From assembly GCA_021800795.1 (NCBI GenBank), contig JAJYYO010000010.1, forward strand, positions 80 through 64,079: a stretch of DNA of 64,000 nucleotides, given 5' to 3'. The translations under genes were made by a program, and so were the position numbers. Every line of letters begins with the position of its first letter. Positions within the stretch are counted from its first letter, which is position 1. The notes under the pieces are model-generated. The model saw only the letters and a list, made by a program, of their open reading frames with translations, made no database searches and had not been told where the DNA came from. Of the stretch, positions 2,489 to 38,363 are shown piece after piece. The DNA is from Pseudomonadota bacterium (lineage in GTDB: Bacteria > Pseudomonadota > Gammaproteobacteria > Burkholderiales > Gallionellaceae).

Positions 2489-2526
2489 AGCTGCGCCGGC
2501 GTCGTGAAGCGAATAGGAAAATATGA

Positions 2527-5540: not shown

Positions 5541-5566
5541 ATCCTCAATCCTCAATCCTCGATCCT
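5541..5566. repeat. heptamer tandem repeat (ATCCTCA/ATCCTCG)
   Basis: atcctcaatcctcaatcctcgatcct. Confidence 0.8.
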
Positions 5567-5574
5567 GTATTCTC

Positions 5575-5590
5575 TGGCACGGCTATTGCT
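5575..5590 (+). promoter_or_regulatory. sigma-54 promoter of pilA
   Basis: TGGCAC-GGCTA-TTGCT is a perfect -24/-12 consensus. TGAC-N7-GTCA at 5417-5431 could be an activator (PilR-type) site. Confidence 0.85.
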
Positions 5591-5670
5591 CTATAATCAT
5601 CAAGGCGAATCGGTGACCGAACCAGTTTTGCCGAATGACCGGATTAACACACTTTAAACAGGAGCTTAGA

Positions 5671-6183: not shown

Positions 6184-6225
6184 TGTACTGCCGGGCCTGA
6201 GTGAAAATCTTCAGGTCTGAAACCG

Positions 6226-6255
6226 AACCCCTCCCTTCTCGGGGAGGGGTTTTTT
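6226..6255 (+). terminator. Rho-independent terminator after pilA
   Basis: aacccctccc-ttctc-ggggaggggtt followed by tttt. Confidence 0.8.
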
Positions 6256-6270
6256 CATGAGGGGTGTTTC

Positions 6271-7902
6271 ATGAAGACGCTGCTTAAAAAAAATATTACG
6301 TTTCTGTATATATTGGCCATCCTTGTCGCGGCAGGCGGTCTGTACGGGCGGTTTTTGTCGAGTCCCATCGTCTTTGACGATTTTTACATGTTCGCCGGGA
6401 ACACGCTGGCGGATTACGGACATTCCTATTTTTCCTTCACGCTGCGCTGGCTTCCCTATGCCACTTTGGGCTGGACCTGGAATACCTTCGGCGAAAACCT
6501 GATCTGGTTCCGTCTGGGTAATCTTTTATTGCACGCGGCAACAGCCGTTGCGCTGTTTTTTTTCCTGAACAGCCTGTTCGAGACGGTTTTACCGCAGGAA
6601 AAAGACCGTTTATCCCATGCAGCTTATGCGTTCTTCGGCGCGCTGCTGTTCGCCTTGCATCCGGTCGCAGTTTTTGCCGCAGGGTATCTGGTGGAGCGCA
6701 GCATCGTAATGGCGACGCTGTTCGGCCTGCTGACACTGTATGCCTATCTGCAAGGGCTGCTGCTGAAAAATAACCGCTGGTTCGTCGCCTCGGCCTGCTT
6801 CTATTTTCTCGCGGTGTTCTCCAAGGAACATGCGGTGATGATCCCAGCTGTGGCGCTCGCATTAACTGTATTGGTGGAATCTCCCTCGAAGGCGCTGTTC
6901 AAGCGCATCGCCCTGCCGTTCATATTTTTTGCGCTGATCGGCATTCTGATCATTTTAAAAAGCAAAGGCGTTCTCGGTGCTTCCTACGAGCCTTTTGCGC
7001 TCGATATGCTCAAGGACTTGTCGGATTCCGGAGAAAAAATCGATCGCGCGCAAGCCTATCCGTTGAGCATCGCAACGCAAAGCCTGCTTTTCTTCAAATA
7101 CCTGGGCTTGTGGCTGCTGCCCAACCCGATCTGGATGTCGGTGGATATGCGCGAGCCCTTCGCATCCAGCCTGCTGGACTGGCATTATCTGCTGGCGATG
7201 GCGGGCTTTCTGGCTTATGGCGGTATCGCGTTATGGCTTTTGCTGCAAAGAGGCAAAAAAGGGCTTGCTGGTTTCGCGATGCTGTTCCCCTGGCTGCTGT
7301 TTGCCACGGAGTTTTCCACGGTGCGCATCCAGGAATCCTTCGTGCTTTATCGCAGTTACCTGTGGATGTCAGGCATTTTTGCAGCGCTGCCGGTATTGTT
7401 TTGTCTCGTTTCCGCCCGCAAGGCGGCGATCTGGCTGGTGTTGCTCTGTTTATTCTACGTTCCGCTGTCGCTCGACCGATTGCAGGACTTCTCGAATCCG
7501 CTTTACCTGTGGGACGATGCCGCGCGGCTGGTGGAACGCAAGCAGGATTTGCCCGGCGTGGCAAGAATCTACCATAATCGAGGCATCTCATTTGCCCATG
7601 TATTCATGAAAACGAAAGCGCTTGAGGATTACAACACGGCGTTAAGGCTCAAGCCCGATGACAGTTATACCTATAATGATCGTGGCGCGCTTTTTTACGA
7701 CTGGGGAAAGTATCCTGAGGCGATGCGCGACTTCGACAAGGCGATCTCGCTGGAAGCGGATGTCGGGCATTTTTACTGGGCGCGCGGCAAGGTTTTCGAG
7801 GCGACCGGAGATATGAGCTCCGCCCAAACTAATTACCGGCAGGGTTGCCAGTTAGGCGAAAAACGCGCCTGCGACAAGCTGGCTGGAATGAAGGGCAAGT
7901 AG
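6271..7902 (+). CDS. polytopic membrane protein with C-terminal TPRs; TMTC-like GT-C glycosyltransferase
   Basis: PIVFDD motif after TM1, HPV...ERS, SKEHA, about 10 TM segments, then TPRs (YHNRG, YNDRG, YWARG). Confidence 0.7.
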   Translation: MKTLLKKNITFLYILAILVAAGGLYGRFLSSPIVFDDFYMFAGNTLADYGHSYFSFTLRWLPYATLGWTWNTFGENLIWFRLGNLLLHAATAVALFFFLNSLFETVLPQEKDRLSHAAYAFFGALLFALHPVAVFAAGYLVERSIVMATLFGLLTLYAYLQGLLLKNNRWFVASACFYFLAVFSKEHAVMIPAVALALTVLVESPSKALFKRIALPFIFFALIGILIILKSKGVLGASYEPFALDMLKDLSDSGEKIDRAQAYPLSIATQSLLFFKYLGLWLLPNPIWMSVDMREPFASSLLDWHYLLAMAGFLAYGGIALWLLLQRGKKGLAGFAMLFPWLLFATEFSTVRIQESFVLYRSYLWMSGIFAALPVLFCLVSARKAAIWLVLLCLFYVPLSLDRLQDFSNPLYLWDDAARLVERKQDLPGVARIYHNRGISFAHVFMKTKALEDYNTALRLKPDDSYTYNDRGALFYDWGKYPEAMRDFDKAISLEADVGHFYWARGKVFEATGDMSSAQTNYRQGCQLGEKRACDKLAGMKGK

Positions 7903-7908
7903 ATTTTG

Positions 7909-8107
7909 CTAAGCCATCGCTAGCCTTGCCGGGCCTTGATACTGTGCCACGGTCGCGTCATCAGTCAGCAATGTAATCCCTTCGACCATTGCCTGCGCAA
8001 TCAGCAGCCGGTCGAAGGGGTCTTTGTGTATCGGTGGCAAGACATCAATCGCAACGGTATGCTCACTGAGTATCGGGAGTTCGCAATATCCGTTGTCGAT
8101 CAGCACA
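7909..8107 (-). pseudogene. C-terminal fragment of PIN-domain (VapC-like) toxin
   Basis: LPPIHKDPFDRLLIAQAMVEGITLLTDD; the 5' half is missing and replaced by REP DNA. Confidence 0.8.
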
Positions 8108-8299
8108 GTAGGATGCGGTGACAACCGCATCGCTCACGTCATTCCCCAAGCTGCGTTCATATCGCCACCGCGAACGATGCGGTTGTCACCGCATCCTACG
8201 CCGCATCAACGTACCAACTCCTGTATCTTGCGGTTCGCACCCTGCAGTTTTTTGAACAGCGCCAGCACCGCGAATGATGCGGTTGTCACCGCATCCTAC
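8108..8299. repeat. GTAG-type REP cluster (3 copies)
   Basis: GTAGGATGCGGTGACAACCGCATC at 8108-8131 (+), 8176-8199 (-) and 8276-8299 (-). Confidence 0.9.
8206..8267 (-). pseudogene. displaced duplicate of the last 19 codons of the cNMP-binding protein gene
   Basis: LALFKKLQGANRKIQELVR* versus ...ELIR* at 9084-9145. Confidence 0.85.
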
Positions 8300-8346
8300 C
8301 GGGTTTATATGGCGGTTTTCTTGGTAAAGGGGACGCTACCCTTTTA

Positions 8347-8628
8347 CTATAGCCCCAGCTCACTATGGGAACCGAGCCGCACAAGTCGCATATTGTCGGC
8401 GTCTGGTTTGTGGTAAATCAATACCAGGTCAGGCTTGATGTGGCAGTCGCGGTGATCCTTCCAGTCGCCAGTGAGCGGATGGTCACGAAAACGCGGTTCA
8501 AGAGGTTGATCGTTCGCAAGACAATCTACAACGGGAAACAAGTCATCATCAAGCGAAGAGCGGTGCCGGCCTTTGGCTTCGCGCTTGTAGTCTCGCTTAA
8601 ATTGGCCGGTCCATTCAATCGTCCGCAC
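8347..8628 (-). CDS. yafQ: YafQ-family (RelE superfamily) toxin
   Basis: FKRDYKR, DHPLTGDWKDHRDCHIKPDLVLIY, LVRLGSHSEL. Confidence 0.9.
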   Translation of the reverse strand: MRTIEWTGQFKRDYKREAKGRHRSSLDDDLFPVVDCLANDQPLEPRFRDHPLTGDWKDHRDCHIKPDLVLIYHKPDADNMRLVRLGSHSELGL

Positions 8629-8878
8629 GGAGTGCTTTTTTCAATTCCGCAATACTGTTGGCGCGAGGCAGATTTCCGGCGCGAGCCTCCATCATGGCCG
8701 CAATAGTGACGGCATTGGGAACCAGAGGGTCAAATGGCAGTGCGTGTTCATGTGCAATTCTTGTTAGCAGCATTCGCACTGCATCGGACACAGTGAGACC
8801 CATAGCGGCCAGCACGCTCGCTGCCTCTTCTTTGATGGCTCCATCAATGCGGGTTTGTACCAGTTGGTTTGCAGCCAT
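8615..8878 (-). CDS. dinJ: RelB/DinJ-family antitoxin
   Basis: VQTRIDGAIKEEAASVLAAMGLTVSDAVRMLLTRIAHEHALPFD; overlaps the toxin start. Confidence 0.88.
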   Translation of the reverse strand: MAANQLVQTRIDGAIKEEAASVLAAMGLTVSDAVRMLLTRIAHEHALPFDPLVPNAVTIAAMMEARAGNLPRANSIAELKKALRADD

Positions 8879-8902
8879 GATCACTTCTCCTTGTTAATTT
8901 GA

Positions 8903-8915
8903 ATTACATTGTAAT
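8903..8915. promoter_or_regulatory. palindromic operator upstream of dinJ-yafQ
   Basis: ATTACA-T-TGTAAT. Confidence 0.55.
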
Positions 8916-8985
8916 GCATTGCGAGTGGCAGCACAAACATTGGGACGCAAATTGGGGCGCAATATTGGTAAAGGGGTAAAGCGCG

Positions 8986-9076
8986 GTAGGATGCGGTGAC
9001 AACCGCATCGCTCGCGTCATTCCCCGGTTGAGTTTATATCGCCACCGCGAACGATGCGGTTGTCACCGCATCCTAC
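8986..9076. repeat. inverted REP pair (REPIN-like)
   Basis: Same 24-bp REP at 8986-9009 (+) and 9053-9076 (-); spacer is homologous to the 8108-8199 pair. Confidence 0.9.
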
Positions 9077-9083
9077 TACAGCA

Positions 9084-9599
9084 TCAACGTATCAATTCCT
9101 GAATCTTGCGGTTCGCGCCCTGCAGTTTTTTGAACAGCGCCAGCAGCAGTGCTTTATCCATATAGGATTTGACTGTGGCATTGCTTTGCAATCGCGCGAT
9201 GCCGGTTTTGTCGATTTCTGCAACGATCAGCTCTCCATCGGCGACGACGGTCGCCGAGCGTGAAATGCTTCCGCTGGCAAAGAAAGTCCCCTCGCCTATG
9301 CATTCTCCGCTGACTATTTTACCGACTATTTTTTTGTCGCAGTAAACGGTGACCGTGCCGAACAGCACGACGTAGAAGGTATTTGAATCATCTCCTTCCG
9401 AGGTGAGGCAGTCATTAGCGGTAAATTTGCGGATTTCGGCCTGTTCGGAGATGAGCTTCAGCCATTCGCCGGGAACGGGATCGAAAAAAGAACACTTGCG
9501 TAATTCTCGCAAACGTTCGCTTGCATCGTCGTCAAGGCGCTTGGTGAAATTGGCAAGACTGGCCTCGATGGATAGCATGGCGTCGTCGAAGTTGTTCAT
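9084..9599 (-). CDS. cyclic-nucleotide-binding domain protein
   Basis: FYVVLFGTVTV, GECIGE, RSATVVA; start taken at MNNFDD. Confidence 0.8.
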   Translation of the reverse strand: MNNFDDAMLSIEASLANFTKRLDDDASERLRELRKCSFFDPVPGEWLKLISEQAEIRKFTANDCLTSEGDDSNTFYVVLFGTVTVYCDKKIVGKIVSGECIGEGTFFASGSISRSATVVADGELIVAEIDKTGIARLQSNATVKSYMDKALLLALFKKLQGANRKIQELIR

Positions 9600-9677
9600 T
9601 TTTGTCCCCTGTGCTGATCTATCCGTAATCTGTGCGTAACTTATCACAAGCCGCAACCGGCGTATATTAATTCGCGC

Positions 9678-10352
9678 TCAAACCGCAGTCACGCCTTTCG
9701 GCGAGATAGCTACGCGGTCATCATGAGCTGCCAGTACGCTCATTTTACGCAATACGATTTTCCGGAACCAGCCGCTTGCCAGCAGCGGCTCATCGCTGAT
9801 GACTTCGAGTTCCGGCGTGGCGAGCAAGACTTCCTCGAATACCACATCCATGCGGGTGGCGATGCGGCGAGAGAGAGGGTTAAGCAAGCGGCGCAGGGGC
9901 GCAGATTGCCCGGGCCGCAGGAATTTGTCGAGCAGGATGATGCCGCCGCCGGGCTTCAAGACGCGTGCGGCTTCAGTCAGGCATCGCGCGGGTTCCGGCA
10001 CCACGGCGGTAATCAGGTGCAGCACGACATGGTCGAAGTGCTCGTCGCTAAAGGGTAAGGCCATGCTGTCGCCCAGCACCCAGTCCACCTGCAAATGGGC
10101 GCCGCGAGGGCGGGCTCGGGAGAGCATCGCCGCATTGAAATCGAGCGCGGTATAGTGATGCAGGGCAGGCAAGAAAGGCAGATCCAGACCCGTGCCGACA
10201 CCGCTCAATAACACCTTTCCAGCCGTGTCGACCGGCAAGGCGCGCAGCGATTGTTTGCGCGGTTCTCGCATCGCGCGTTCGATGACGGCATCGTAGATCG
10301 GCGCGATCAGGCTGTAGCTGCTGCGTAACCGGGGATTGCGAAGATAACTCAT
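9678..10352 (-). CDS. class I SAM-dependent methyltransferase (PmtA-like)
   Basis: [34 protein letters not shown]. Confidence 0.8.
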
Positions 10353-11209
10353 GTCGTGTAATCCAGGGCGATGCCGGCGAAGACAGCAGCGCCGAACCAG
10401 TTGTTATGCAGGAATGCCTTGAAGCAGGCTTCGCGGTTTCTGTTTTTGATGAGCGAGTAGTGATACAGCGCGATGGCGGATGCGATTGCCAGTCCGGCGT
10501 AATACAAGCCGCCCAGATGCGCAATTTTACCTGCCCAGGCCAATAATGCCAGCGTCGCGGCATAACAGCCCATCACCGCCGTCACGTCGTATTTGCCGAA
10601 AAACAGCGCCGATGAGTGGATGCCCAGATGAATGTCGTCATCCCTGTCCACCATCGCGTATTCGGTATCGTAGGCGATCGACCAGAACATGTTCGCGCTT
10701 AAAAGTATCCACGCTACAGGCGGTACGGCATTCAGCTGGGCGGCAAAGCTCATCGGGATGCCGAAGCCGAACGCGATGCCCAGATAGGCTTGCGGAATGG
10801 CCAGAAAGCGCTTGGTGAACGGATAGCTGCCGGCCAGAAAGACCGCCGGAACAGACAGCAACAGAGTCAGCGTATTGAGCGGCAGTATCAGCAGGAAGGA
10901 AATAACGGCAAGCGTCGCTGCCAGCCACAAGGCTTCGCGTGGCGTAATGCGTCCGCTGGTGACGGGGCGGTTTTGTGTGCGTTCGACATGACGGTCTATG
11001 TCGCGGTCGGCATAGTCGTTGATCGCGCAACCTGCCGAGCGCATCAGCAGGGTACCCAGCGTAAAGATCAGCACGATGTGCCAGGCCGGTGTGCCGCCGC
11101 CTGCGATCCATATTCCCCACAGCGTCGGCCATAACAAGAGCAGGATGCCGATGGGGCGATTCAGCCGGGTGAGCTGCATATACAGCGATAAGCGTTCAAT
11201 AAAAGTCAT
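10349..11209 (-). CDS. ubiA: 4-hydroxybenzoate octaprenyltransferase
   Basis: [16 protein letters not shown]...[19 protein letters not shown]. Confidence 0.96.
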
Positions 11210-11922
11210 TTCAGGATCGAGGATCGAGGATCGAGGATCGAGGATCGAGCGTGAGGCGGCGCTGTCACACGATCCTCAATCCTCAATCCTAGATTTAATA
11301 TGCCGGGCAAAAACACTTCCGTGACCAGCAGCGGTTTATTGTGCAGATAAAACAGGGATCTGCGCGCCCAAAGCCTGCCAGGCGGATAGGACAATATGCC
11401 AGCTGCGCGCCGGTACAGCGGATGATGCGGGTGCAAGGCCTTGTAATGCAATGGCAGACGGGCAACCATCGGATGCGAGAACAGCAGCGCGCCCAGCGGT
11501 TTGTTGCCAAGGTTGCGCAAACCCTGCCAAGCTCCGCGCAACGCTGTGGCAGCGCAGGCGCTGTGCGCAAATACCACGGGTTGCTTATCGGCGCACAGGA
11601 AAACTTCGCGCGACCAGGCAAGCTGCCTGGTGGCGATCCCCAGCAGTGCCGATTCATCCGGTGCAATGAGCGCCAGGCCGCTCTTCACGTTGCGCACGGA
11701 AAAATGCTCGCAGTGCTGCATAATGCGCTGCGTCAGCGAACCGCGGTCACGCAGCCAGGGCAGCAATTCTGCTCCGGCTCCCAATGTCGCGCTGCTCCAG
11801 AATGTGTCGTTCATGTGAAACTCGCGCAAGCGTTCGTTTGCCTCCTCGCCCTTTGGGAGAGGGTTGGGGTGAGGGAAGCGGGCATCATGGTTTTTATTAT
11901 CAGAGGTTGCATACTTTTTCAT
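11206..11922 (-). CDS. ubiC: chorismate pyruvate-lyase with repeat-derived termini (core may start at 11814)
   Basis: [48 protein letters not shown]. Confidence 0.92.
11214..11290. repeat. inverted heptamer arrays in the ubiC C-terminus
   Basis: (GGATCGA)x5 at 11214-11248 facing gatcctcaatcctcaatcct at 11271-11290. Confidence 0.9.
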
Positions 11923-11930
11923 GCTCGCTA
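11815..11930. mobile_element. family-A element, copy 2 (recG-ubiC junction)
   Basis: gtgaaactcgcgcaagcgttcgtttg...gggagagggttggggtgaggg...attatcag...catgctcgcta; contains the recG stop and an in-frame ATG. Confidence 0.8.
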
Positions 11931-14087
11931 TACGTGCAAATAGTCATGTTTGTTTGCCATCCAGCGATGCAAGTAGCCGCGCGCAGCCTCCGGATAGTCG
12001 CGCAGCAACTGATCGGCGACATCCCTTGCCATGTTCAATAAATCTTCGTCAGTTTCTATATTGGCAAAACGCAACATCGCCATGCCGCTTTGCCGTGCGC
12101 CGAGCAGTTCGCCCGGACCCCGCAATTGTAAGTCCTGTTGGGCAATCGCGAAGCCGTCCGTGTTCTCGAAAATGACTTTCAGGCGTGTACGGGCCAGTTC
12201 GGACAGCGGTTTCTGATAAAGCAGGATGCACAGGCTTTGCGCCGCGCCGCGTCCCACGCGTCCGCGCAACTGATGCAGCTGTGCCAGCCCCATGCGTTCG
12301 GCATGATCGATCACCATCAGGCTGGCATTCGGTACATCCACGCCGACTTCGATGACGGTGGTTGCGACCAGCAACTGGAGTTCGCCGGTCTTGAATGCGG
12401 CCATCACGCGCACCTTTTCGCTGCTGTCCATCTTGCCGTGTACCAGGCCCACGCGCAGTTCGGGGAAAGTCCCGGTGAGCATTTGGTGTGTTTCCAGCGC
12501 ATTTTGCAATTGCAGCACTTCGGATTCGTCGATCAACGGGCACACCCAATAGGCCTGCTGTCCGGTCATGCAGGCGGCGCGCACCCGCTCGAATACCTCG
12601 TCGCGGCGCGCTTCGCTGACCAGTTTGGTAATCACCGGGGTGCGACCCGGCGGCAATTCGTCTATCACCGATACGTCCAGATCGGCGTAATAGCTCATCG
12701 CCAGCGTGCGCGGAATCGGCGTGGCGCTCATCATCAGCTGATGCGGTTCGGCGGATTTAAATTGTTCATCAGGCCGTTCGTGGTGAGCTTGTCGAACCCT
12801 CTGCGCAGTAAATTCATTCCCTTCGACTAGCTCAGGCGGGTGTCCGACCACCAGGTTTATGGGGCGAACGGATTTTTCGGTCTTGCCTTTGGCATGAAGG
12901 GCCAGGCGCTGCTGTACGCCGAACTTGTGCTGCTCGTCCACGATCGCGAGCCCCAGTTTGTGGAAACTGATCTGTTGCTGGAACAGCGCATGCGTGCCGA
13001 TGGCAAGCAGCGTTTCGCCCGATGCGATTTTGTCTGAGGCTACCCGCTTGTCTTTTTTCTTCAGGCTGCCGGACAGCCAGACCGGCGTCACGCCTAGCGG
13101 CGCCAGCCAGTCACCGAGTTTCAGGTAATGCTGCTCGGCCAGAATTTCGGTGGGTGCCATGAAGGCGACCTGATAGCCGTTCTCGATGGCTTGCAAGGCT
13201 GCGAGTGCGGCGACGATGGTCTTGCCGCTGCCCACATCGCCCAGCAGCAGACGTTGCATCGGATGCGGTTTTGCCAGATCGCGGCTGATTTCGCTGAATA
13301 CTTTCTGCTGTGCGCCGGTCAGTTTGAACGGCAGGTTTTTCAGGAGTGCCGCGGTGTAACGGCCCGTCTGTTTGAGAGCAGGCGCCACGCGATTGCTGCG
13401 TTCACGATGATGCACGCGCATCGAGAGTTGCTGGGCCAGCAACTCGTCGAACTTGATGCGTCGCCAGGCGGGATGCGTGCGTTCTTCCAGAGAACTCGCA
13501 GCAATATCCGGCATAGGGTTATGCAGCACATTAAGGCTCTCTGAAAACCCGAGCAAATTCAAGTTGTTGCAAATTTCCTCAGGCAGGTAGTCCGGCGTAG
13601 GCAGCACTTCGAGTGCGTTGGCGATCAGTTTGCGCAACGCGGTTTGCGACAGTCCGGCTGTGGCAGGATATACCGGCGTCAGACTGGTTTGCAACGGTGT
13701 CTCGTCGTTCACCGCACGGCATTTCGGATGCACCATCTCCAGTCCGTAATAACCCATGCGCACCTCGCCGACGGCGCGTATCTGATTATCCACGGCCAGC
13801 AGTTTTGTCTGGCTGGGATAGAAATTAAGAAAGCGCAGATACAGCTCGCCGCTTGCGTCCTGCAGGCGGCAGATCAGCGTGCGGCGCGGGCGGTGGGTAA
13901 TCCCGGCGTGCGTGATGACGCCCTGTACCTGTGCGGTTTCGCCGGGTTCCACGGCCGCAATCGGCGCGAGATGGGTTTCGTCCTCGTAACGGATCGGCAG
14001 ATGCAGCAACAGATCGGCACGATGGTGGATGCCCAGCTTCGCGAGATTCGCCAGCGTGGCAGGAGAGATTTTCGCGGGGGAGGTCAA
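11928..14087 (-). CDS. recG: ATP-dependent DNA helicase RecG
   Basis: GDVGSGKT, DEQH, MSATPIPRT, QLHQLRGRVGRG. Confidence 0.97.
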   Translation of the reverse strand: MTSPAKISPATLANLAKLGIHHRADLLLHLPIRYEDETHLAPIAAVEPGETAQVQGVITHAGITHRPRRTLICRLQDASGELYLRFLNFYPSQTKLLAVDNQIRAVGEVRMGYYGLEMVHPKCRAVNDETPLQTSLTPVYPATAGLSQTALRKLIANALEVLPTPDYLPEEICNNLNLLGFSESLNVLHNPMPDIAASSLEERTHPAWRRIKFDELLAQQLSMRVHHRERSNRVAPALKQTGRYTAALLKNLPFKLTGAQQKVFSEISRDLAKPHPMQRLLLGDVGSGKTIVAALAALQAIENGYQVAFMAPTEILAEQHYLKLGDWLAPLGVTPVWLSGSLKKKDKRVASDKIASGETLLAIGTHALFQQQISFHKLGLAIVDEQHKFGVQQRLALHAKGKTEKSVRPINLVVGHPPELVEGNEFTAQRVRQAHHERPDEQFKSAEPHQLMMSATPIPRTLAMSYYADLDVSVIDELPPGRTPVITKLVSEARRDEVFERVRAACMTGQQAYWVCPLIDESEVLQLQNALETHQMLTGTFPELRVGLVHGKMDSSEKVRVMAAFKTGELQLLVATTVIEVGVDVPNASLMVIDHAERMGLAQLHQLRGRVGRGAAQSLCILLYQKPLSELARTRLKVIFENTDGFAIAQQDLQLRGPGELLGARQSGMAMLRFANIETDEDLLNMARDVADQLLRDYPEAARGYLHRWMANKHDYLHV
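12774..12871. repeat. palindromic element in frame in recG
   Basis: ccgttcgtggtgagcttgtcgaacc...ccttcgactagctcagg...gcgaacgg, read as PELVEG...VRQAHHER. Confidence 0.85.
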
Positions 14088-14120
14088 TGCACTCTCTTGC
14101 CTGATGAGCGGCGGTGCAAG

Positions 14121-31065: not shown

Positions 31066-31141
31066 GGCCTGGTAGCTCAGTCGGTAGAGCAGAGGATTGA
31101 AAATCCTTGTGTCGGTGGTTCGATTCCGCCCCGGGCCACCA
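31066..31141 (+). tRNA. tRNA-Phe (GAA)
   Basis: 76-nt cloverleaf; anticodon arm aggat-tGAAa-atcct, GGTTCGATTCC T-arm, encoded CCA. Confidence 0.97.
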
Positions 31142-31212
31142 AATAAATAAAAGGCTTGCAGCGATGCAGGTCTTTTTGCTTTTCTACAATTGCAGATGTT
31201 TTTCTACAATTC

Positions 31213-32193
31213 TCATTTCAGAGGCTCAACTTTCTCGCCTTTTCTGTTCCGTGTGTAGTGCTCAGTCATGGCGCGTGTCTTGTGTCCAAGCAGCTGCTGT
31301 GAGCGTGCCAGATCATCCGTGTCAGTTGCAGTCTTGGCGCGAATGTCCCGAAACTGAAAGTCAACTCCTGCCGCTTTTCTGGCATTGTCAAAACGCGAGC
31401 GCAACGTGGCATAGCTCAATCGCTGGCCGTTCCCGTTCTGCAACATGGCATCACCACCCATGACGCTGTGCTGACGCCCCAGGATGCGCTGTATCAGCGT
31501 TGCCAGTTCGCCCACAATGTTGATGCGCAGTTTCTTGCCTGTTTTATTTTGGGTGAATAACAGAGATCCTTCACGAATGTCGCTTCTGTTCAGTTTTAGC
31601 AAGTCTGCCGGCCGCTGTCCGGTGAGATAGGCTAAATCCATCGCGTCCTGCACGGTGTAGTGTGCTTTTTCCCAAACATCGAAAAATTCAGTATCTTCGA
31701 TATATCGGTCTCGGCCTGTTTCGCGGTGGCCTTTGACGCCGGCGCAAGGGTTTGGCGCATCGGTGTAACCCCATGCCCTGGCGCAGTTGAAAATATGGCT
31801 GAACAGGGCTTTTTCGCGGTTGGCGCGAGTTGGTGCAACTTGGCCGCGTTGGTCCAGGTAGCGTTTGACATGGTGCGGCTTGATTGCATCTATCGGCATA
31901 GTGCCGAACACCGCTTCAAGCCTGCTCAATTCCTTCTCGTTGTCACGCTGGGTCTGTGGTGCTTTGGTTGGGAATACTTCCTTGCGGTAGCGTGCGGCCA
32001 CGTTCCTGAATTCGCTGCTGTTACGGTCAAACGGTTCGCATTCGATTTCAGCCCAAAGGCGTTTTGCAATGGACAAGTCCTGATCGAGCTTCGTCCACTT
32101 GCGCGGCATGTCGGTTGAGACGTGGTAATACATTTTGCCTTTGAGATTCATCCTCGGTGGCAGGTTGTGATTGATTGTGCGCTTGCGTCCCAT
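31213..32193 (-). CDS. tyrosine recombinase (phage integrase)
   Basis: LTGQRPADL, FRDIRAK, LLGH...TEHY; start MGRKRTINHNLPPRM. Confidence 0.95.
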   Translation of the reverse strand: MGRKRTINHNLPPRMNLKGKMYYHVSTDMPRKWTKLDQDLSIAKRLWAEIECEPFDRNSSEFRNVAARYRKEVFPTKAPQTQRDNEKELSRLEAVFGTMPIDAIKPHHVKRYLDQRGQVAPTRANREKALFSHIFNCARAWGYTDAPNPCAGVKGHRETGRDRYIEDTEFFDVWEKAHYTVQDAMDLAYLTGQRPADLLKLNRSDIREGSLLFTQNKTGKKLRINIVGELATLIQRILGRQHSVMGGDAMLQNGNGQRLSYATLRSRFDNARKAAGVDFQFRDIRAKTATDTDDLARSQQLLGHKTRAMTEHYTRNRKGEKVEPLK

Positions 32194-32201
32194 GAGTGGT
32201 G

Positions 32202-32420
32202 TTACATCGCGCCCCAGTTCGGCTCCGGTGCTGCCGGCGCAGTGTTCGTGATTGCGCTGCCGCATAGACGCGCCTGCACGTGTTCACGCGATACCCTGGC
32301 GTGTCCGTTTGCACCGGTGGCGAAGAGGAAACCGTTAGCCTTCAGCCAGGCGATCTGCTCGGCTTTGCGCTTGCGTTCGGTCAGTTCTGCCAGTTCTGAT
32401 TGAGTAAGGAAGATCATCAT
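32202..32420 (-). CDS. excisionase-like protein (DUF4224 type)
   Basis: FLTQSELAELTERKRKAEQIAWLKANG...NGHARVSR...PNWGAM, directly upstream of int. Confidence 0.8.
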   Translation of the reverse strand: MMIFLTQSELAELTERKRKAEQIAWLKANGFLFATGANGHARVSREHVQARLCGSAITNTAPAAPEPNWGAM

Positions 32421-32421
32421 T

Positions 32422-32613
32422 TCACCTTACGATACCAGGACGTGTACGGCGTGCAGATCGTTTGTACATCAGGCGCGATTGATAGAGGCTGGCGTGTTTG
32501 TATGTTGGGTCAATTTGGCGGATACGATTGTGCAATCTCATGAGCGTGATACTTGCATTGATGCTCATGTCAGCGTTGCTCGTGTGAGGGCTGATAAAAC
32601 GTCTTGGTTTCAT
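32422..32613 (-). CDS. small basic hypothetical protein
   Basis: 63-aa ORF tightly packed between neighbours. Confidence 0.45.
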   Translation of the reverse strand: MKPRRFISPHTSNADMSINASITLMRLHNRIRQIDPTYKHASLYQSRLMYKRSARRTRPGIVR

Positions 32614-33284
32614 GCTGTTTTCTCCTTGAGTTGTTCGGTTGCTGGTGAAAAAGGAATAATTCTGGCTGTGGCAATTCGGGACATCAGGCCGATGATCGTG
32701 TCCTGCATGGCGGCGAGTTCATCCACCACGCCCTGGGCGACATACATCTGCCGCAGCTTGGTGTTTTCTGCCTGTGCTTCATCGAGCAGGGCTTGCAGGC
32801 GTGCATTCTCTATTCGCAGCTCAGGCGCTTCGCCGCGCTGGAACGACAGGACATTCAGCTGCCCAGGTGAAAACCCTTCGCCGCCCACGTCCGGCGACAT
32901 CAGGTTGCCGGTTTCGCTGACGAACCAGCCATCCCAGTCTGCATGTGTGAATTTGAATCTCATGCTTTCGAGTACCAGGCGCAGCAGTTCGAAGGCGATG
33001 AAAGGTATCTGGGTGTCGCCGTTCTCCCATCTGTCAAGCGTGCGCAGTGATACGCGCATATAGGCGGCGCACTGTTTTGGTGTCATGCGAAGCATCGTGC
33101 GCATGTGTTTGAAGTTTTCCGGCGAAACTGTGAAGCATTGCGATAGCTGCACCCATTGCGGGTGATAGCCCGGGAAAGCCTCGTTGATTGCTTGCGAGCT
33201 GGGCTCAATGGCCTGCATCCAGTACGCCCAGCTGGTTTTGTCGCTGGGTTGGTGCTTCTTGGTCTTTTTAGTGGTATTCTTCAT
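32610..33284 (-). CDS. HTH + DUF3653-like + coiled-coil protein (XafT/VC1465-like)
   Basis: MTPKQCAAYMRVSLRTLDRWENG HTH, WDGWFVSETGNLMSPD segment, heptad-rich C-terminus. Confidence 0.65.
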   Translation of the reverse strand: MKNTTKKTKKHQPSDKTSWAYWMQAIEPSSQAINEAFPGYHPQWVQLSQCFTVSPENFKHMRTMLRMTPKQCAAYMRVSLRTLDRWENGDTQIPFIAFELLRLVLESMRFKFTHADWDGWFVSETGNLMSPDVGGEGFSPGQLNVLSFQRGEAPELRIENARLQALLDEAQAENTKLRQMYVAQGVVDELAAMQDTIIGLMSRIATARIIPFSPATEQLKEKTA

Positions 33285-33348
33285 TCAGCCTTCTCCTATC
33301 AAGGCGAGTTGCGCGCCGGTGCTTGGCGGTTCCGGCGCGTAACGCTTT

Positions 33349-34614
33349 CTAAGCGTCCAATAAGTGCCAATTCCCGCTGAAATGCCCCTTGTAGAAATAC
33401 ACACCCTGGTGTGATGCTGGGCGTTGTGCAAGGTCTGCCAGCAGTTCTTCCACAGCTTCCCTTCCGAACTCGGCCGCTTGCAGCACATTCCAGCGTGCAT
33501 TGCGGCTCAGTACCAGCTTCCACATGTCGTGATTCAGGATAATTACCAGCTCGCGTTCCGGCATTTCCTCGGCGGCGATTTCTTCGTCTGTTTTTTCTTC
33601 TTCAGGCAGTACCAGCGCCTTGCGCAACTTGGGCGACCAGAACAGCTGACGCTTCCCCTTGAACTGCTTGGCGTACTCGATGAACAGTTCGCCGGCGCCC
33701 GTATCGCCTTCTGCGAAATCTCGCAGCAGCGTGAAGGGAGTCCGTCCACTGAGACGGCGGCCAATTTTGGCGTTTCCCTTGGTGAGTTCGTGTGATGCGC
33801 CCCAGTGCGAGTCCGTCAACGTCTTGGATGCGGTGCTTGGCTCATGTCCGAACTTGGCGACGTACTCGGCGGCGTAATCGCCCGCCTGAACGTCAAAGGC
33901 ATACAACAGCATTTCATTCACCTGGTCACGATCTGCCAGCCCGATCTTGATGAGGGTATTGATCCATACCATATCCAACCGCTTGAGCAGTTCCAGCTGA
34001 TCGGGTGAGGCGAACACCAGCGTATGGGTGTGTGGATGCCAGCCGTTCGCGCCGTGAGTGACTTCCAGCGCGCGGATGCTGCCCAGGCAGCCAGCTTGTT
34101 CCAAGATGCCTTTGTATGACCTGCTGTTCTTGAACTTGGTTTGAGCTGTTGAAAACAGCTTGAGGTTATCGGCCAGCAGGTGATTCAACTGGTGAGGAAA
34201 TGTCTGGCTCATCAGGTAAACCTTGCCGCCCGTCTTCGCCCAGGCGCTGATTGCGTTCTGTAGCTCGATGCGGCGTTGTTCTGTGATCTTGGCGGCACAT
34301 ATTGGGCAGTGCCACACGCTACCGCAGGTGGACAGGTTGCCAAATGATGCGCCCTTGTCGCCCGTGCGGAACACGCTCACGCCGTTTTCATTCATGCAGC
34401 TGCGCTGACAGTGCTTGACCCGTTCGCCCGGGAGCAGGCCTTGTGCTGTGCGCTGCAACTGGTAACGCATCCGGCGCGGTGCATCTAAGGCTTCGCTGCC
34501 TGTTTTCCGTTTTGGTTTTTGGCTATCCGGAGCGTGTACAGTATTCGCATATATACCAAGAGAAGCACGGCCTGCTGGTTTTGCCTCCTGCTGGCGGTTG
34601 TAACCGGGGTTCAT
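33349..34614 (-). CDS. rolling-circle replication initiator (HUH, Rep_1-like)
   Basis: CGSVWHCPICAAKI, GWHPHTHTL (HUH), AAEYVAKFG (catalytic Tyr). Confidence 0.9.
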   Translation of the reverse strand: MNPGYNRQQEAKPAGRASLGIYANTVHAPDSQKPKRKTGSEALDAPRRMRYQLQRTAQGLLPGERVKHCQRSCMNENGVSVFRTGDKGASFGNLSTCGSVWHCPICAAKITEQRRIELQNAISAWAKTGGKVYLMSQTFPHQLNHLLADNLKLFSTAQTKFKNSRSYKGILEQAGCLGSIRALEVTHGANGWHPHTHTLVFASPDQLELLKRLDMVWINTLIKIGLADRDQVNEMLLYAFDVQAGDYAAEYVAKFGHEPSTASKTLTDSHWGASHELTKGNAKIGRRLSGRTPFTLLRDFAEGDTGAGELFIEYAKQFKGKRQLFWSPKLRKALVLPEEEKTDEEIAAEEMPERELVIILNHDMWKLVLSRNARWNVLQAAEFGREAVEELLADLAQRPASHQGVYFYKGHFSGNWHLLDA

Positions 34615-34823
34615 AGCGTCACTCCGCGCTTTATCAGCTCACGGTTGATGACCAGTGCGCGCTTGATTTCTTTTTGTGCAGCTTCGAGCTTTTCCAAGCC
34701 TTTGGGCATGCCAAGGAAAAAACAGGCGCCATCGATCAGCCTTCCGGCTTCAGAGTTGCGCTCCTTGAATTCTTGTAGCAGTTCATCATCAGATAGTCTG
34801 GGATGGGGTTGGCGGTTTGTCAT
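34611..34823 (-). CDS. hypothetical protein
   Basis: 70-aa ORF whose stop overlaps the rep start. Confidence 0.55.
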   Translation of the reverse strand: MTNRQPHPRLSDDELLQEFKERNSEAGRLIDGACFFLGMPKGLEKLEAAQKEIKRALVINRELIKRGVTL

Positions 34824-34849
34824 GATTTTCCTATCAGGTGTTGAAGGCG

Positions 34850-35062
34850 TTACGCGAGGGGCACCACGGCGCAGACACAGTCAGTGCTGTCTGACAGCTT
34901 CTGGGAGCGGCGTAGGGCATCCTGGTGGCGCGCATAGCGGCGTGCAAAGGTCGGCAGGATGCTGGTGCAATCCCAGCGCCTTCCGGTTAGCTTGGCTTCC
35001 CGCTTGAGTGCGGGCGACTCCGAATAGAAGTCGCCGGTTTCGATATTGAGGACGGCGTACAT
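34850..35062 (-). CDS. hypothetical protein
   Basis: 70-aa ORF in the same operon. Confidence 0.5.
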   Translation of the reverse strand: MYAVLNIETGDFYSESPALKREAKLTGRRWDCTSILPTFARRYARHQDALRRSQKLSDSTDCVCAVVPLA

Positions 35063-35067
35063 GGCGG

Positions 35068-35211
35068 CTACACCTGGCGAGGCTGGGCAGGTGCTGCGGG
35101 CTTTTTGCTTTGCGCTGCTGCGATTGCCAGGACGACCAGCGTTGCCAGCACGAAAACAGCAGCCTTACCGCCGCCGCCAGAAAGCATAGATACAGGGCAG
35201 GGGGCGCTCAT
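35068..35211 (-). CDS. 47-aa single-TM peptide (not in the ORF track)
   Basis: MSAPCPVSMLSGGGGKAAVFVLATLVVLAIAAAQSKKPAAPAQPRQV; ATG overlaps the upstream stop. Confidence 0.55.
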   Translation of the reverse strand: MSAPCPVSMLSGGGGKAAVFVLATLVVLAIAAAQSKKPAAPAQPRQV

Positions 35212-35849
35212 TCTTCACCATCCGTTTCTTCGTCGGTGGATTGCTCATCTGCTTGCTGGTCGGCCAGCAGTGCAGTGCTATACAGGCTGCCAATCAAATC
35301 GGCCTGTGTTTTTGGTTCTGCTTTTTCAGGCAATGGAGCCAAGATGTTCCGGCCTTGCAGTGTTCTGAAAAGCAGGTAGTTTTCAGCCATCAAACCGTAA
35401 AGCTCTTTCGTGTCGGTATCAGTCTTTTCTGAATAGGTCGAAAGGAAGCCGCTTTCCAGCGTGTGTTTCATCAGTTCGGCTATGCGCGCATCGTTACTGT
35501 CCATGCGTTCCAGGATTGAATCGACCTGATCCTGTGGCAATGACTGGTCAACTACAAACCGGCAGGTTTGCAATGGCGTGACGATGCCGACGCCTGGCTG
35601 TGATTTTGGTGTGTTGGGTGTGTCTGGCTTGGCCTCAATGTCGTTGAAGTCGATTCCGTTGCCTTCATAGAACATGCGAAGGTTTTCAAGAAAGGCCATA
35701 TCCGGGATAAACCGGCCCGTCTCAAAATTCTTGAGTTTGTGGCCTGGTAGCTGACTTTGCTCGATAACGTTGGCTTGAGTTAAGCCGAGTTGAAAACGGG
35801 CTGCGCGGGATTGCTCAGCCGTGATTGGTAGTTTTGATGGGATTTTCAT
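35208..35849 (-). CDS. XRE-type HTH protein
   Basis: RAARFQLGLTQANVIEQSQL...LKNFETG. Confidence 0.75.
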   Translation of the reverse strand: MKIPSKLPITAEQSRAARFQLGLTQANVIEQSQLPGHKLKNFETGRFIPDMAFLENLRMFYEGNGIDFNDIEAKPDTPNTPKSQPGVGIVTPLQTCRFVVDQSLPQDQVDSILERMDSNDARIAELMKHTLESGFLSTYSEKTDTDTKELYGLMAENYLLFRTLQGRNILAPLPEKAEPKTQADLIGSLYSTALLADQQADEQSTDEETDGEE

Positions 35850-35955
35850 TTGCAGCTCCTTTGCTATTAAACGTAGCTATTTGCTACGATGGTTTAACTC
35901 TAGCAAAGGCTATCAAAAAAAGCAACATGCTTTTTTAAGTAGCATGTAATGACGT

Positions 35956-35985
35956 AAAAAAACCGGGCTGATTCCTCACCCGGTT
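35956..35985 (-). terminator. terminator after the repressor gene
   Basis: Minus strand aaccgggtgaggaatcagcccggtt followed by ttttt. Confidence 0.7.
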
Positions 35986-36005
35986 AATAAAAGACTGAAA
36001 TTTAA

Positions 36006-36614
36006 TTAAAGCTTTTTGTCTGAATTCTTACTTTCTAGTATTAAACGAAGGTCATCAGCTACGTCCAAAAAAGTCCGATCTGCATGTGCTTCCATCAGCT
36101 TATCAAAACTCTTACGTTCGCCGCGCAGCATTCCAATCATGATCTGCACAAGCGCAATACTTTGTTCCGGTTCCAAAGAACGAAGGCAATAAACTGCCCG
36201 AGCTAAAAACTCAGGTTCTGATTCGGCAACACCGCCATAGTGTAAAGAATCGGCCTTAATGTCGAATGGGTCGTCATCACCATAAATAAAATAAGAAGGA
36301 GAAACTCTGAGCACTTCGGACAAAAGTCGTATTTCTTTAACTCCAGGTCGATTGATGCCAAGCTCATACAATGAAATCACACCTCTGGATAATCCCTTAC
36401 CATCCTTGTCGGCAAGTTTGGTTGAAGAAGCTAGTTGATCCTGTGTTAGGCCTTTAGCTTTGCGCTGGTACTCAAGACGCTTCCCTATTTCGCTTTCTGG
36501 CTCAGATGTGCTAACCCCCAACCCTCCGTCCACTTCATTAGCTAACCGTTCCAGACGGCGCCAGCTTTTCAGCTTATCTAGATCTAAAGGTTCTGGTTCT
36601 TGTTTTTTTGACAT
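36006..36614 (-). CDS. XRE/cI-like repressor
   Basis: RKAKGLTQDQLA...SRGVISLYELG..PG...RLLSEVLRVSPSYFIYG. Confidence 0.8.
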   Translation of the reverse strand: MSKKQEPEPLDLDKLKSWRRLERLANEVDGGLGVSTSEPESEIGKRLEYQRKAKGLTQDQLASSTKLADKDGKGLSRGVISLYELGINRPGVKEIRLLSEVLRVSPSYFIYGDDDPFDIKADSLHYGGVAESEPEFLARAVYCLRSLEPEQSIALVQIMIGMLRGERKSFDKLMEAHADRTFLDVADDLRLILESKNSDKKL

Positions 36615-36981
36615 GGCGGTTTTTAAGTTGAAACGTGTTGGTTGTCTTGGTAAAACTAGCTGGAAGGCCTCTAGTTTATTGGCTTCCAGCTGGTTGCCGT
36701 TATTCTTATCAAGCGCATTATTGCAGGGTTGTGGACAGTGCGCCAGTGCCGGCAATCTGGCCGGCCAGCATTGCCATGAATGCCGGTGATCGATGCGGTG
36801 TTTTGTCCAGGTACAGGCAGAAGCACATCAAACCAAAACCGTTTTGCAGAAGGGTGATCTACGCTGATTTACAGTGTGGCGATGGGGTGGACTCCAGAAA
36901 TTCACCGTAGGCCATGGGCGTTCCGCTCTTCATGCCGGACAGACTTCGCGGGGTGACCGCTCAGCCCCGAAAATGCGTAAC

Positions 36982-37413
36982 TTACGTGCCGGAAATCAGC
37001 GCGGTGTACACCCTAAAAAATCGCAGTATCTTTGGTGATGCGTGGCGAGAGATTGTCAGCCCAGCACAGATTTGGTCGACGATCTTGCCATCCATTAGAT
37101 CCTTTGCAATGAATTCTCCCGTTGCGACACCGTTGACAAGCTTAGTGGCTTCCTCAATTCGGGAGTGAGCATAGCTCACGTAGCTGGTGCGGGTAACGAA
37201 AGGGTGATCGCCTGGATTCAGAATGAAAGTGGGATCATGCGGAAGTGCCGGATTCAACGTGGATAAGCTGGTTAACAGTACGCAGACTTTTCCGTTCTCA
37301 GGATTGTTAACTGGATCAGTGAGAAGGATGAAAAGGTGGTTCCTATTGATGTCGTGCGCTGGGCCCGATGGATAAAGCAGCGTTGCCCGCCGAAGGGGCT
37401 GGAACAAACTCAT
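36982..37413 (-). CDS. putative toxin of a Panacea TA pair (PemK/MazF-like by eye)
   Basis: HLFILLTDP...VLLTSLST...ILNPGDHPFV..TSYVSY; start overlaps the antitoxin stop. Confidence 0.55.
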   Translation of the reverse strand: MSLFQPLRRATLLYPSGPAHDINRNHLFILLTDPVNNPENGKVCVLLTSLSTLNPALPHDPTFILNPGDHPFVTRTSYVSYAHSRIEEATKLVNGVATGEFIAKDLMDGKIVDQICAGLTISRHASPKILRFFRVYTALISGT

Positions 37414-37964
37414 AGTCTGGCAAAAAGCCTGTCTAGTGAGCGCTCCGTTTCAATACGTGCACCGAGTTCGATTGCGGTTTCATCTGACTTGCCTAACGCA
37501 CGGAACACAGCCTCGTAGGGGATGGGCAACGATGAGCCGTTCGGATCTTGCCACTCAGGGCAGGATTTGTGAGTGTAGTCACGAATTGCCCACTGGTTCA
37601 TGTGACCAAATTCCTTCCAGACAGAGTCAAGCGTTTCTATATCTGCAGCGCTTAATTCATCCAGTGCGTCTGGCAAGGCTGGGCGTTTCAGTGTAACTTT
37701 GTGATTTGCCTTGTCAGAAATCCACGATTCCCATCCGTTCTCACATGACTCAACATCGCCATCGATTAGGTTCAATGTCATAGAAAGAACTGGGCCGTGT
37801 GGCATGGCAACGATGCAGTCACCAGAAATCGGGAAGCCATAAAGCTCCATTGACTGACGATCGGCAAGGTAGAGAAGCTTCATGAGCTTCAGATGAGGCA
37901 TGCATTTCTCCCCTCTGTCTAACAGGTAGGCAGCCATCTGAGCTACTTTGCGCTCATTAAACAT
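37410..37964 (-). CDS. Panacea-domain (DUF4065/SocA-like) antitoxin
   Basis: LKLMKLLYLAD, AMPHGPV, THKSCPEW. Confidence 0.85.
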   Translation of the reverse strand: MFNERKVAQMAAYLLDRGEKCMPHLKLMKLLYLADRQSMELYGFPISGDCIVAMPHGPVLSMTLNLIDGDVESCENGWESWISDKANHKVTLKRPALPDALDELSAADIETLDSVWKEFGHMNQWAIRDYTHKSCPEWQDPNGSSLPIPYEAVFRALGKSDETAIELGARIETERSLDRLFARL

Positions 37965-38260
37965 GGTTTACTCCTTGTGTGGTGACAGAAAGTTGATGTG
38001 GGATATAACGGCATAACATGCACGTAGTTTAACGCATTTTTGCAGGTTGAAAATTTTTGATGCAATTTTGCAACAAGTGTCATGCAAATTCTCGTCTACT
38101 AAGGCAAAAAAGCTGGAATTACTACATCATCGCTTTTATGCGGCTGTTGTTCTACAATGCGCGCGATCAATGAGCAATGACGGGCCTTACAAGCAGGCTG
38201 TTTTTTGTGATTTGTAGAACAGGCAGGACGTAACTGCTTGTATTAATTTGGCTTGGGTTC

Positions 38261-38334
38261 GGATTGAAAATCCTTGTGTCGGTGGTTCGATTCCGCCCCG
38301 GGCCACCAAATAAATAAAAGGCTTGCAGCGATGC
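38261..38334 (+). repeat. attR: duplicated tRNA-Phe 3' part
   Basis: Identical to 31094-31167. Confidence 0.95.
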
Positions 38335-38363
38335 GAGCCTTTTTGCTTTGTGGTGTAAACGAA

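Follow-up and report, generated by a model that had tools for sequence, protein, structure and literature searches.

A 7.2-kb integrative rolling-circle replicon at tRNA-Phe of a Gallionellaceae genome represents a conserved, apparently undescribed family of Betaproteobacteria

Good descriptions of satellites and of other elements that depend on a helper are confined to tailed phages and to the Vibrio inoviruses that make use of Xer recombination. Here, we analyze a 64,000-nucleotide stretch of a Gallionella genome (Gallionellaceae; positions 80 to 64,079 of contig JAJYYO010000010.1, assembly GCA_021800795.1; hereafter the window), which carries at its tRNA-Phe gene a compact element of 7,167 bp joining a tyrosine integrase (Int) and an excisionase (Xis) to a rolling-circle replication (RCR) initiator (Rep) of the HUH type. 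Among the described systems, TLCΦ of Vibrio resembles this element in being small, in encoding a rolling-circle Rep, a XafT-family protein with helix-turn-helix (HTH) and DUF3653 domains and an RstR-like repressor, and in having no morphogenesis genes. However, TLCΦ has a Cri-type Rep and integrates at dif via the host XerCD recombinases, XafT being the HTH-DUF3653 protein that activates XerD (PMC6744903). Our element, instead, has a Rep_1-family initiator, its own Int and Xis, a tRNA target, and no dif-like site. The pSAM2-type elements of actinomycetes possess a repSA-xis-int operon, integrate into tRNA genes, and replicate by the rolling-circle mode after excision. As far as we are aware, this operon would be the closest functional analogue; both systems place a pC194/Rep_1-type initiator, xis, and int in one operon, use the 3' end of a tRNA gene, and replicate, or in our case are predicted to replicate, after excision. 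The pSAM2-type elements, however, have actinobacterial hosts and conjugate as double-stranded DNA by means of an FtsK-like Tra protein and spread genes, whereas our element resides in a proteobacterium, is devoid of transfer genes, and has other regulators (the XafT-like p224, and p213).

Corticovirus-like prophages with a double jelly-roll (DJR) capsid protein, of both the int type and the dif type, have Reps intermixed with those of our element and share with it a P15/XafT-type regulator. Those of the int type also use Int, Xis, and a repressor (PMC12715192). The dif-type DJR vibriophages carry p15, a homologue of xafT, the P15 proteins being regulators of DJR phages, and in PM2 P15 and P16 are early repressors within an early region whose layout is found in plasmid pAS28, too (PMC12715192, PMC1950889); with this PM2-type layout on a plasmid (PMC1950889), pAS28 is a further relative in kind. 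In contrast to the DJR prophages, our element has no genes for the P2 capsid, packaging ATPase, membrane proteins, or lysis and has p213, p47, p70b, and p63 of its own. VEIMEs and PICMIs, small satellites which are packaged as concatemers, likewise comprise 5 to 8 kb with an integrase and a replication gene, have no capsid genes, and are distributed in the environment beyond pathogens. They are, however, associated with tailed phages and typically feature primase-type or plasmid-type replication, AlpA, and Fis, and a scaffold of an HUH Rep_1/GPA initiator with XafT has not been reported for them.

According to our analysis, the element is a real and intact member, assembled from known modules, of a conserved and widespread family of Betaproteobacteria which is apparently undescribed; we did not find this architecture in the literature searched. 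Its reading as an integrative RCR replicon from an undescribed family has good support, and with moderate confidence we take it to be an inducible replicon which needs a helper to spread.

The insertion is defined by tRNA-Phe(GAA), the sole tRNA gene that ARAGORN detects in the window. The longest direct repeat between 30 and 40 kb (attL and attR in Table 1) measures 89 nt at 97% identity with an exact stretch of 74 nt, and the 7,167-nt spacing of its copies gives the length of the element. The repeat extends from the anticodon loop through CCA into the tRNA terminator hairpin, whose two copies differ by stem-preserving changes. Outside the repeats, the neighboring genes are groEL and prfC, one at either end. 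When these flanks were joined in silico and the resulting empty-site query was searched in 61 congeneric genomes, the uninterrupted groEL-tRNA-Phe-prfC arrangement was found to be contiguous (query positions 1 to 654) in at least nine of them. The 7.2-kb segment has thus been inserted into a conserved gene order, with the att core duplicated at both ends, the target restored, and the empty site present in relatives. The 7.17 kb between att sites at tRNA-Phe put forward by the original prediction hence holds; of the extent it had assigned to the element (31094 to 38334), the left boundary stands, whereas attR in fact reaches 38349. One of the empty sites lies in a Gallionella genome (G180:C1:190867-191570) which harbors the closest relative of the element (L029/L044, Rep 92% identical) on another contig, where no tRNA was detected; that copy may occupy a different integration site or be unplaced or free.

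All credible genes of the element are located on the minus strand, and they encode, in the direction of transcription, the Panacea antitoxin, its 143-aa partner, the XRE repressor, p213, p47, p70b, p70a, Rep, p224, p63, the DUF4224 excisionase, and Int. The combination of an integration module with a rolling-circle replicon claimed in the original prediction is thus corroborated by Int and Xis at tRNA-Phe together with a Rep_1 initiator, and the individual components it had named, namely integrase and excisionase (PF00589, PF22022, PF13986/DUF4224, and PHROG excisionase families), HUH Rep, XafT-like gene, and toxin-antitoxin (TA) pair, are all present. It had counted two HTH regulators, but three HTH proteins were found (XRE, p213, and p224), and its small open reading frames (ORFs) do exist, although the conserved p47 and p63 had gone unlisted.

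TABLE 1 Features of the element and its insertion site, in window coordinates
Feature	Position	Strand	Remarks
tRNA-Phe(GAA)	31066..31141	+	Integration target; 3' 48 nt part of att repeat (ARAGORN)
attL	31094..31182	+	Direct-repeat copy: tRNA 3' half and terminator hairpin
Two direct arm-type repeats TTCTACAA (putative)	31182-31189 and 31202-31209 (31182..31209)	+	Adjoin int
Tyrosine integrase	31213..32265	-	350-aa ORF; PF00589 3e-15, PF22022, phrog_1
Excisionase-like DUF4224 protein, 72 aa	32202..32420	-	PF13986 1e-13; PHROG excisionase families
p63, basic 63-aa core protein	32422..32613	-	10/10 aligned elements; exactly 63 aa in 9
p224, XafT/VC1465-family protein	32610..33284	-	NF040522; AlphaFold2 (AF2) model
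Putative double-strand origin	33285..33353	-	Hairpin 33312-33339; CTTGATA nick motif 33297-33303
Rep, Rep_1-family HUH rolling-circle initiator, 421 aa	33349..34614	-	PF01446; phrog_11698 9e-72
p70a, variable small ORF coupled to rep start	34611..34823	-	Homologue in L049 only
p70b, conserved 70-aa core protein	34850..35062	-	8/10 elements, 65-97% identity
p47, conserved single-pass membrane peptide	35068..35211	-	10/10 elements, 41-54 aa
p213, first gene of long operon, family marker	35208..35849	-	>=206 homologue clusters; AF2 model
Putative operator, perfect 9-nt inverted repeat CCTTTGCTA / TAGCAAAGG	35858..35909	unassigned	Directly upstream of p213
XRE-family repressor (RstR/DicA-like)	36006..36755	-	PF01381 1e-8; own terminator
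143-aa Panacea partner, putative toxin (cargo)	36982..37413	-	phrog_19071 1.6e-22
SocA/Panacea-domain antitoxin (cargo)	37410..37964	-	PF13274 7.5e-27
Distal arm-type sites, inverted pair TGTTCTACAA / TTGTAGAACA (putative)	38148..38221	unassigned
attR	38261..38349	+	Direct-repeat copy; prfC next

The Rep protein matches PF01446 with 36.2 bits (cut-off, 33.2) over residues 101 to 204 only, and its HPHTH motif (H193-P-H195-T-H197) and YxxxY motif (Y247/Y251, in DYAAEYVAKF) are invariant in 28 homologues; relatives at 35 to 38% identity are Reps encoded by small RCR plasmids. Between rep and the p224 gene lies a spacer of 64 nt. Including a few flanking bases, about 75 nt are conserved in 10 elements, far better than the 3' coding sequence of rep beside them. 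The spacer contains a GC-rich hairpin of 9 bp, GCGCGCCGG-N12-CCGGCGCGC, and 8 nt beyond it CCTTGATAGG, the nick consensus of the pC194/phiX174 type; CTTGATA sits on the stem-loop junction of a second, small hairpin. This heptamer is found at the spacer site in eight of the elements, the remaining two having CTCAATA or CTCGATA, and RNAalifold reveals compensatory changes in three stem pairs. The elements of Dechloromonas and Thiobacillus have an unrelated spacer sequence with the same layout of a long hairpin followed by a small one, with TG/AT at the stem-loop junction. Based on this pattern of conservation, the spacer hairpin and CTTGATA likely constitute the double-strand origin. A second CTTGATA, at 36707 to 36713, was rejected as an origin, since it is not conserved in relatives and the count of the motif in the window equals chance.

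The repeat TTCTACAA occurs six times in the window against 0.76 expected. Four of these copies are no more than about 120 nt away from an att core, two as direct repeats beside int and two as an inverted pair at the far end. Since it is also present at the ends of a metagenomic relative (L021), TTCTACAA fits the placement of putative arm-type integrase sites. No Arm-DNA-bind Pfam domain was found in Int, and its match to Int_N is weak (19.5 bits, below the cut-off). The true start of Int is probably at 32193 (326 aa), since homologues align from residue 24/25. L021 itself, a Logan contig of 7,141 bp, was considered as a circular form of the element and rejected: its 15-nt end overlap is the exact product of a 45-nt att repeat in a k=31 assembly graph and therefore carries no evidence on circles.

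The search for related elements suggested by the original prediction yielded a conserved family with at least 12 syntenic members of 6.9 to 7.9 kb between repeats of a tRNA 3' half. Of 201 Gallionellaceae genomes, 18 encode a homologue of Rep, and in about 10 of these the full synteny XRE-p213-p47-p70b-Rep-p224-p63-Xis-Int is preserved. Among the hosts are Gallionella, Sideroxydans, and further Gallionellaceae; Thiobacillus and Dechloromonas harbor more distantly related elements. Ten elements could be delimited, spanning 6,927 to 7,938 bp and bounded by 45- to 74-nt repeats of a tRNA 3' half, mostly of tRNA-Phe and in two cases of tRNA-Met. Gene clustering places nine families in all 10 of them, p47 (41 to 54 aa) and p63 (63 aa) included, and the pairwise ratio of nonsynonymous to synonymous substitution rates (dN/dS) ranges from 0.03 to 0.46 for every core gene, again with the small ORFs; judged by these ratios, all core genes are under purifying selection. 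The gene decay which had been named beforehand as speaking against the element was not seen, as all ORFs of the window copy are intact and core dN/dS values are well below 1. Beyond the sequenced genomes, p213 forms at least 206 clusters at 90% identity in a metagenome protein collection, many of them on contigs of about 7 kb.

The family also exchanges modules. Two isolates of Rhodocyclus tenuis, as well as contigs L130 and L131, have an HUH initiator of the Phage_GPA (P2 gpA) type instead of Rep_1, while the scaffold of TA cargo, XRE, p213, small ORFs, Rep, p224-like protein, small ORF, Xis, and Int is retained; in L131, moreover, a lambda-type Exc and an Int with an Arm-DNA-bind_1 domain stand in place of the DUF4224-type pair. 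Across these swaps, every version joins the p213/p224 regulators to a rolling-circle initiator and to site-specific recombination, and the exchange of both Rep and Int/Xis on one scaffold shows that selection preserves the combination of a rolling-circle Rep with Int/Xis. Since isolates of R. tenuis carry the variant, a culturable system is available.

The assignment of p224 is genuine, with a score of 72.2 bits against a cut-off of 70 for NCBIfam NF040522 ("VC1465 family Xer recombination activation factor"). Its sequence comprises an XRE HTH domain, a DUF3653-like W-x-G-W hairpin, and a C-terminal coiled coil, and the AF2 model correspondingly displays an HTH domain, a short beta hairpin, and a long coiled coil; all nine homologues tested match PF12375 (DUF3653) below threshold. 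Foldseek searches with the model retrieved HTH matches only, and tblastn of p224 against the phage collection gave no match. Proteins similar to p224 are encoded at the ends of three Gallionellaceae DJR prophages. In the element, no dif-like site was detected, with none within 9 of 28 mismatches of the host dif and no arm within 1 mismatch, and the integration of the element is therefore not Xer-mediated. A XafT-family protein in an element without dif makes a role beyond XerD activation, be it in transcription control, multimer resolution, or packaging, directly testable. The candidate chromosomal dif of the host, AATACGCATAATGTATATTATGTCAAAT, is found on the minus strand of genome contig C51 at position 7486, with four mismatches to E. 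coli dif.

When Rep was compared by tblastn, inoviruses matched at 27 to 40% identity and small rolling-circle plasmids at 33 to 38%; individual inovirus relatives are blackswan219-6 (40%), L122 (50%), and prophages of Chitinimonas (41 to 44%). The closest contexts outside the family are corticovirus-like prophages encoding the PM2 P2 DJR capsid protein, with Reps 62% identical in Sideroxydans and 48% in Sulfuricella, and further such contexts in Methyloversatilis, Rhodocyclus, Burkholderia, Azoarcus, Duganella, and others. In a quick, provisional IQ-TREE phylogeny of 72 Reps labeled by context, the Reps of the Gallionellaceae elements form a clade with 99% support which includes one Sideroxydans DJR-prophage Rep. 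Its sister (98% support) comprises 11 DJR prophages, 4 unclassified loci, and 2 Dechloromonas elements, and the joint clade (96% support) contains 12 DJR prophages, 12 elements, and neither inoviruses nor small plasmids. The inovirus Reps of Chitinimonas and L122 branch outside it, and the other half of the tree holds those of plasmids.

Corticovirus-like prophages (PF18628/PF25513) with Rep_1-type initiators are common across Betaproteobacteria (L120/L121, L124/L125, L060-L066, L069, L079, and L088), with the capsid gene about 3.4 kb downstream of rep. Several of them have no integrase and end in a XafT-like gene, and dif integration is therefore probable for these. An inovirus prophage of 8.3 kb with Rep_1, G8P coat, and Zot occurs in at least three head-to-tail tandem copies in a gammaproteobacterial metagenome-assembled genome (L122/L123, JAWLGZ010000004.1). 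In the IMG/VR contig IMGVR_UViG_3300021167_000646 (L142, positions 1 to 14100; L130), a tandem array at tRNA-Phe consists of an intact tRNA-Phe, an integrase-bearing inovirus prophage (Rep_trans, Zot, and secretin), a tRNA-Phe 3' half, and a Phage_GPA-Rep member of the element family. The second tRNA-Phe 3' half of this array is 48 nt long and identical to the att core of the window. That the inovirus and the element of the array share an integration module was rejected, as their integrases are 23% identical.

From the anatomy of the element, we infer the following for its regulation, excision, replication, and spread. In the integrated state, the XRE repressor would bind the inverted-repeat operator and so silence one long operon of p213, p47, p70b, p70a, rep, the xafT-like gene, p63, xis, and int. 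Upon derepression, Xis and Int would recombine the 74-nt att cores with the assistance of the TTCTACAA arm sites, which would free a circle and restore tRNA-Phe; Rep would then nick CTTG/ATA beside the hairpin immediately 3' of its gene and amplify the circle by the rolling-circle mode. The TA cargo may serve to stabilize the element or to defend the host. As the original prediction had stated, no Zot, capsid, terminase, or conjugation genes were found in the element, and Zot, the PM2-type capsid gene (PF18628), and VirB4 (PF03135) are missing from the whole host genome. Since the element encodes neither particle nor transfer functions, its intercellular spread must need a helper, and since its Rep lineage and its XafT/P15-type regulator are common to small nontailed rolling-circle phages, such a phage is the most likely helper. 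By these sequence relationships, we would rank a corticovirus-like DJR phage first and an inovirus second.

Several observations weigh against a helper-dependent, inducible replicon. Most carrier genomes have no resident helper candidate (Zot in two of nine, the PM2-type capsid gene in none of nine), and in the host family as a whole the DJR capsid gene is rare (3 of 201 genomes), Zot and inoviruses being commoner (21 of 201). The origin sequence of the element was not retrieved by nhmmer from the DJR and inovirus loci examined, and hidden Markov models of p213, p47, p70b, and p63 found no match outside the family among the ORFs of these loci; comparison of sequences brought out no cis or trans link from the element to a particular helper. 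In addition, rep or int is frameshifted in some family copies (L035/L056, L036, L037, and L043), and the noncoding regions of the element show no strong fold resembling a single-strand origin (z of -0.5 and -0.9). The co-residence of Zot was considered as a signal of a helper and set aside, two of nine carriers against a background of 10% being uninformative. The filamentous helper envisaged by the original prediction is not resident in the genome, where the search found no Zot. Of its proposal of a helper-dependent satellite or integrative RCR plasmid of an undescribed type, the integrative RCR replicon of an undescribed family stands, whereas the satellite label stays conjectural, since there is no resident helper and the filamentous analogy has become weaker.

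More tentatively, the family may comprise the first recognized integrase-bearing satellites of small nontailed rolling-circle phages (PM2-like corticoviruses and/or inoviruses), which would swap Rep and P15/XafT modules with their helpers, be packaged in a membrane-containing icosahedral or a filamentous particle while encoding no structural genes, and be widespread in freshwater and groundwater Betaproteobacteria; we regard this as possible, with doubts prevailing. The family, which joins self-encoded Int/Xis, an exchangeable rolling-circle Rep, and a XafT/P15 regulator in compact form, would extend the satellite picture to nontailed phages or to integrative plasmids of environmental Betaproteobacteria such as iron oxidizers and Rhodocyclales. 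Markers of P4-like elements, PICIs, cfPICIs, and PLEs (primase-helicase, AlpA, and capsid-redirecting or small-terminase genes) were not among the Pfam, PHROG, and NCBIfam hits.

We deem it unlikely that the element is a satellite of a filamentous phage in the manner of TLC or RS1, in which a helper inovirus would extrude the single-stranded DNA arising from RCR and p224 would, like PSB15, attach to a packaging hairpin, using its DUF3653 part. In Xanthomonas inoviruses, the packaging hairpin is indeed bound by a DUF3653 protein (bioRxiv 2024.03.19.585677), inovirus elements that integrate via Xer typically encode XafT/DUF3653 proteins, Rep has the inovirus relatives listed above, all genes lie on one strand, inoviruses reside in a tenth of the host family, and one family member is located beside an Int-bearing inovirus at tRNA-Phe. 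The Rep clade, however, groups with DJR prophages and is devoid of inoviruses, the host genome and most carriers have no Zot, the element has no dif-like site, and p47 bears no coat-family or coat-protein signature; as to the tandem array, given its divergent integrases and the Rep_trans of its inovirus, the two may be neighbors simply because the tRNA is a hot spot. The analogy to TLC drawn by the original prediction therefore survives in the XafT-family gene and fails in dif, in the type of Rep (Rep_1, not Cri), and in the clustering of Rep with DJR prophages.

A lower probability still is given to a helper-independent integrative plasmid or cryptic element which excises, replicates, and reintegrates but is inherited mainly vertically, spreads only via transformation, vesicles, or generalized transduction, and uses its XafT-like protein purely as a regulator, like P15 of PM2. 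Such an element would be in keeping with the lack of any helper signature, with TA cargo at a fixed position, which is typical of plasmid maintenance, and with the precedent of pAS28, a plasmid with a corticovirus-type (PM2) early region (PMC1950889). On the other hand, the patchy occurrence across genera and families at 60 to 90% identity and with different tRNA targets implies frequent horizontal movement, and the narrow size range of 6.9 to 7.9 kb hints at a constraint.

Less probable again is an integrative mobilizable element, whose Rep would act as a noncanonical relaxase at CTTGATA and whose DNA would be carried by the type IV secretion system of a conjugative element, as for the Rep_1 plasmids mobilized by ICEBs1 and the streptococcal elements with RCR-type relaxases. 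RCR initiators, those of the Rep_1 family included, are known as relaxases (PMC5704250), and an integration module, Rep, and TA cargo without structural genes would suit such an element. The streptococcal mobilizable elements with Rep_trans, Rep_2, or PHA00330 initiators are likewise small and encode a tyrosine integrase along with an HUH initiator, often accompanied by TA cargo. They are, however, elements of Firmicutes which often carry TcpA coupling proteins and require integrative and conjugative elements as helpers, and known mobilization by RCR relaxases relies on coupling proteins of this TcpA type; our element encodes no such protein, nor was a canonical MOB relaxase found in it. The VirB4-type ATPase (PF03135) was detected in none of the nine element-bearing genomes; a conjugative helper would have to share the donor cell with the element. 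The Rep lineage is viral or plasmid-like rather than tied to conjugative elements. Conjugative mobilization is disfavored because type IV secretion systems are missing from the carriers. Finally, a decayed corticovirus-like or filamentous prophage which has lost its structural genes would account for the Rep and XafT-like gene common to such prophages, but conservation throughout the family, together with purifying selection, excludes it in practice: dozens of lineages agree in gene set, gene order, and size, with family-specific genes, and the window copy has intact ORFs throughout and no fragments of structural genes.

Among the remaining features, the Panacea antitoxin is translationally coupled to its 143-aa partner, which has no match in Pfam, NCBIfam, or PADLOC, and the pair recurs as cargo in elements L047 and L037. 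Family-wide, the cargo slot lies between the distal att and the XRE gene, with variable contents among which TA pairs recur; besides the Panacea/143-aa pair of the window, PhdYeFM/PIN, MazE/PIN, and HTH_17/PIN_3 were identified. Scans of the small ORFs and the putative toxin against Pfam, PHROG, and PADLOC returned phrog_19071 only, and p63 in particular has no Pfam or PHROG match. The dN/dS values are 0.09 to 0.41 for p47, 0.05 to 0.19 for p70b, 0.09 to 0.46 for p63, and 0.03 to 0.08 for the excisionase. In the p213 protein, the N terminus forms a Cro/C1-type HTH domain, which is followed by a helical C-terminal domain and an acidic tail; in the AF2 model, Foldseek matched the HTH domain only and no known fold for the C-terminal one.

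The matches of the XRE protein to RstR and DicA are weak, and alignment of homologues places its true start probably at 36614 (202 aa). Directly upstream of this position, at 36654 to 36695, lies a 13-nt inverted repeat, AACTAGCTGGAAG/CTTCCAGCTGGTT, which is a candidate autoregulatory operator. Outside Betaproteobacteria, three alphaproteobacterial loci of Terasakiella and Eilatimonas (L071, L073, and L096) contain a Rep_1 gene followed by an HTH gene and a tyrosine integrase gene 2 to 3 kb downstream, and they may represent a parallel or a distant branch of the same kind of element.

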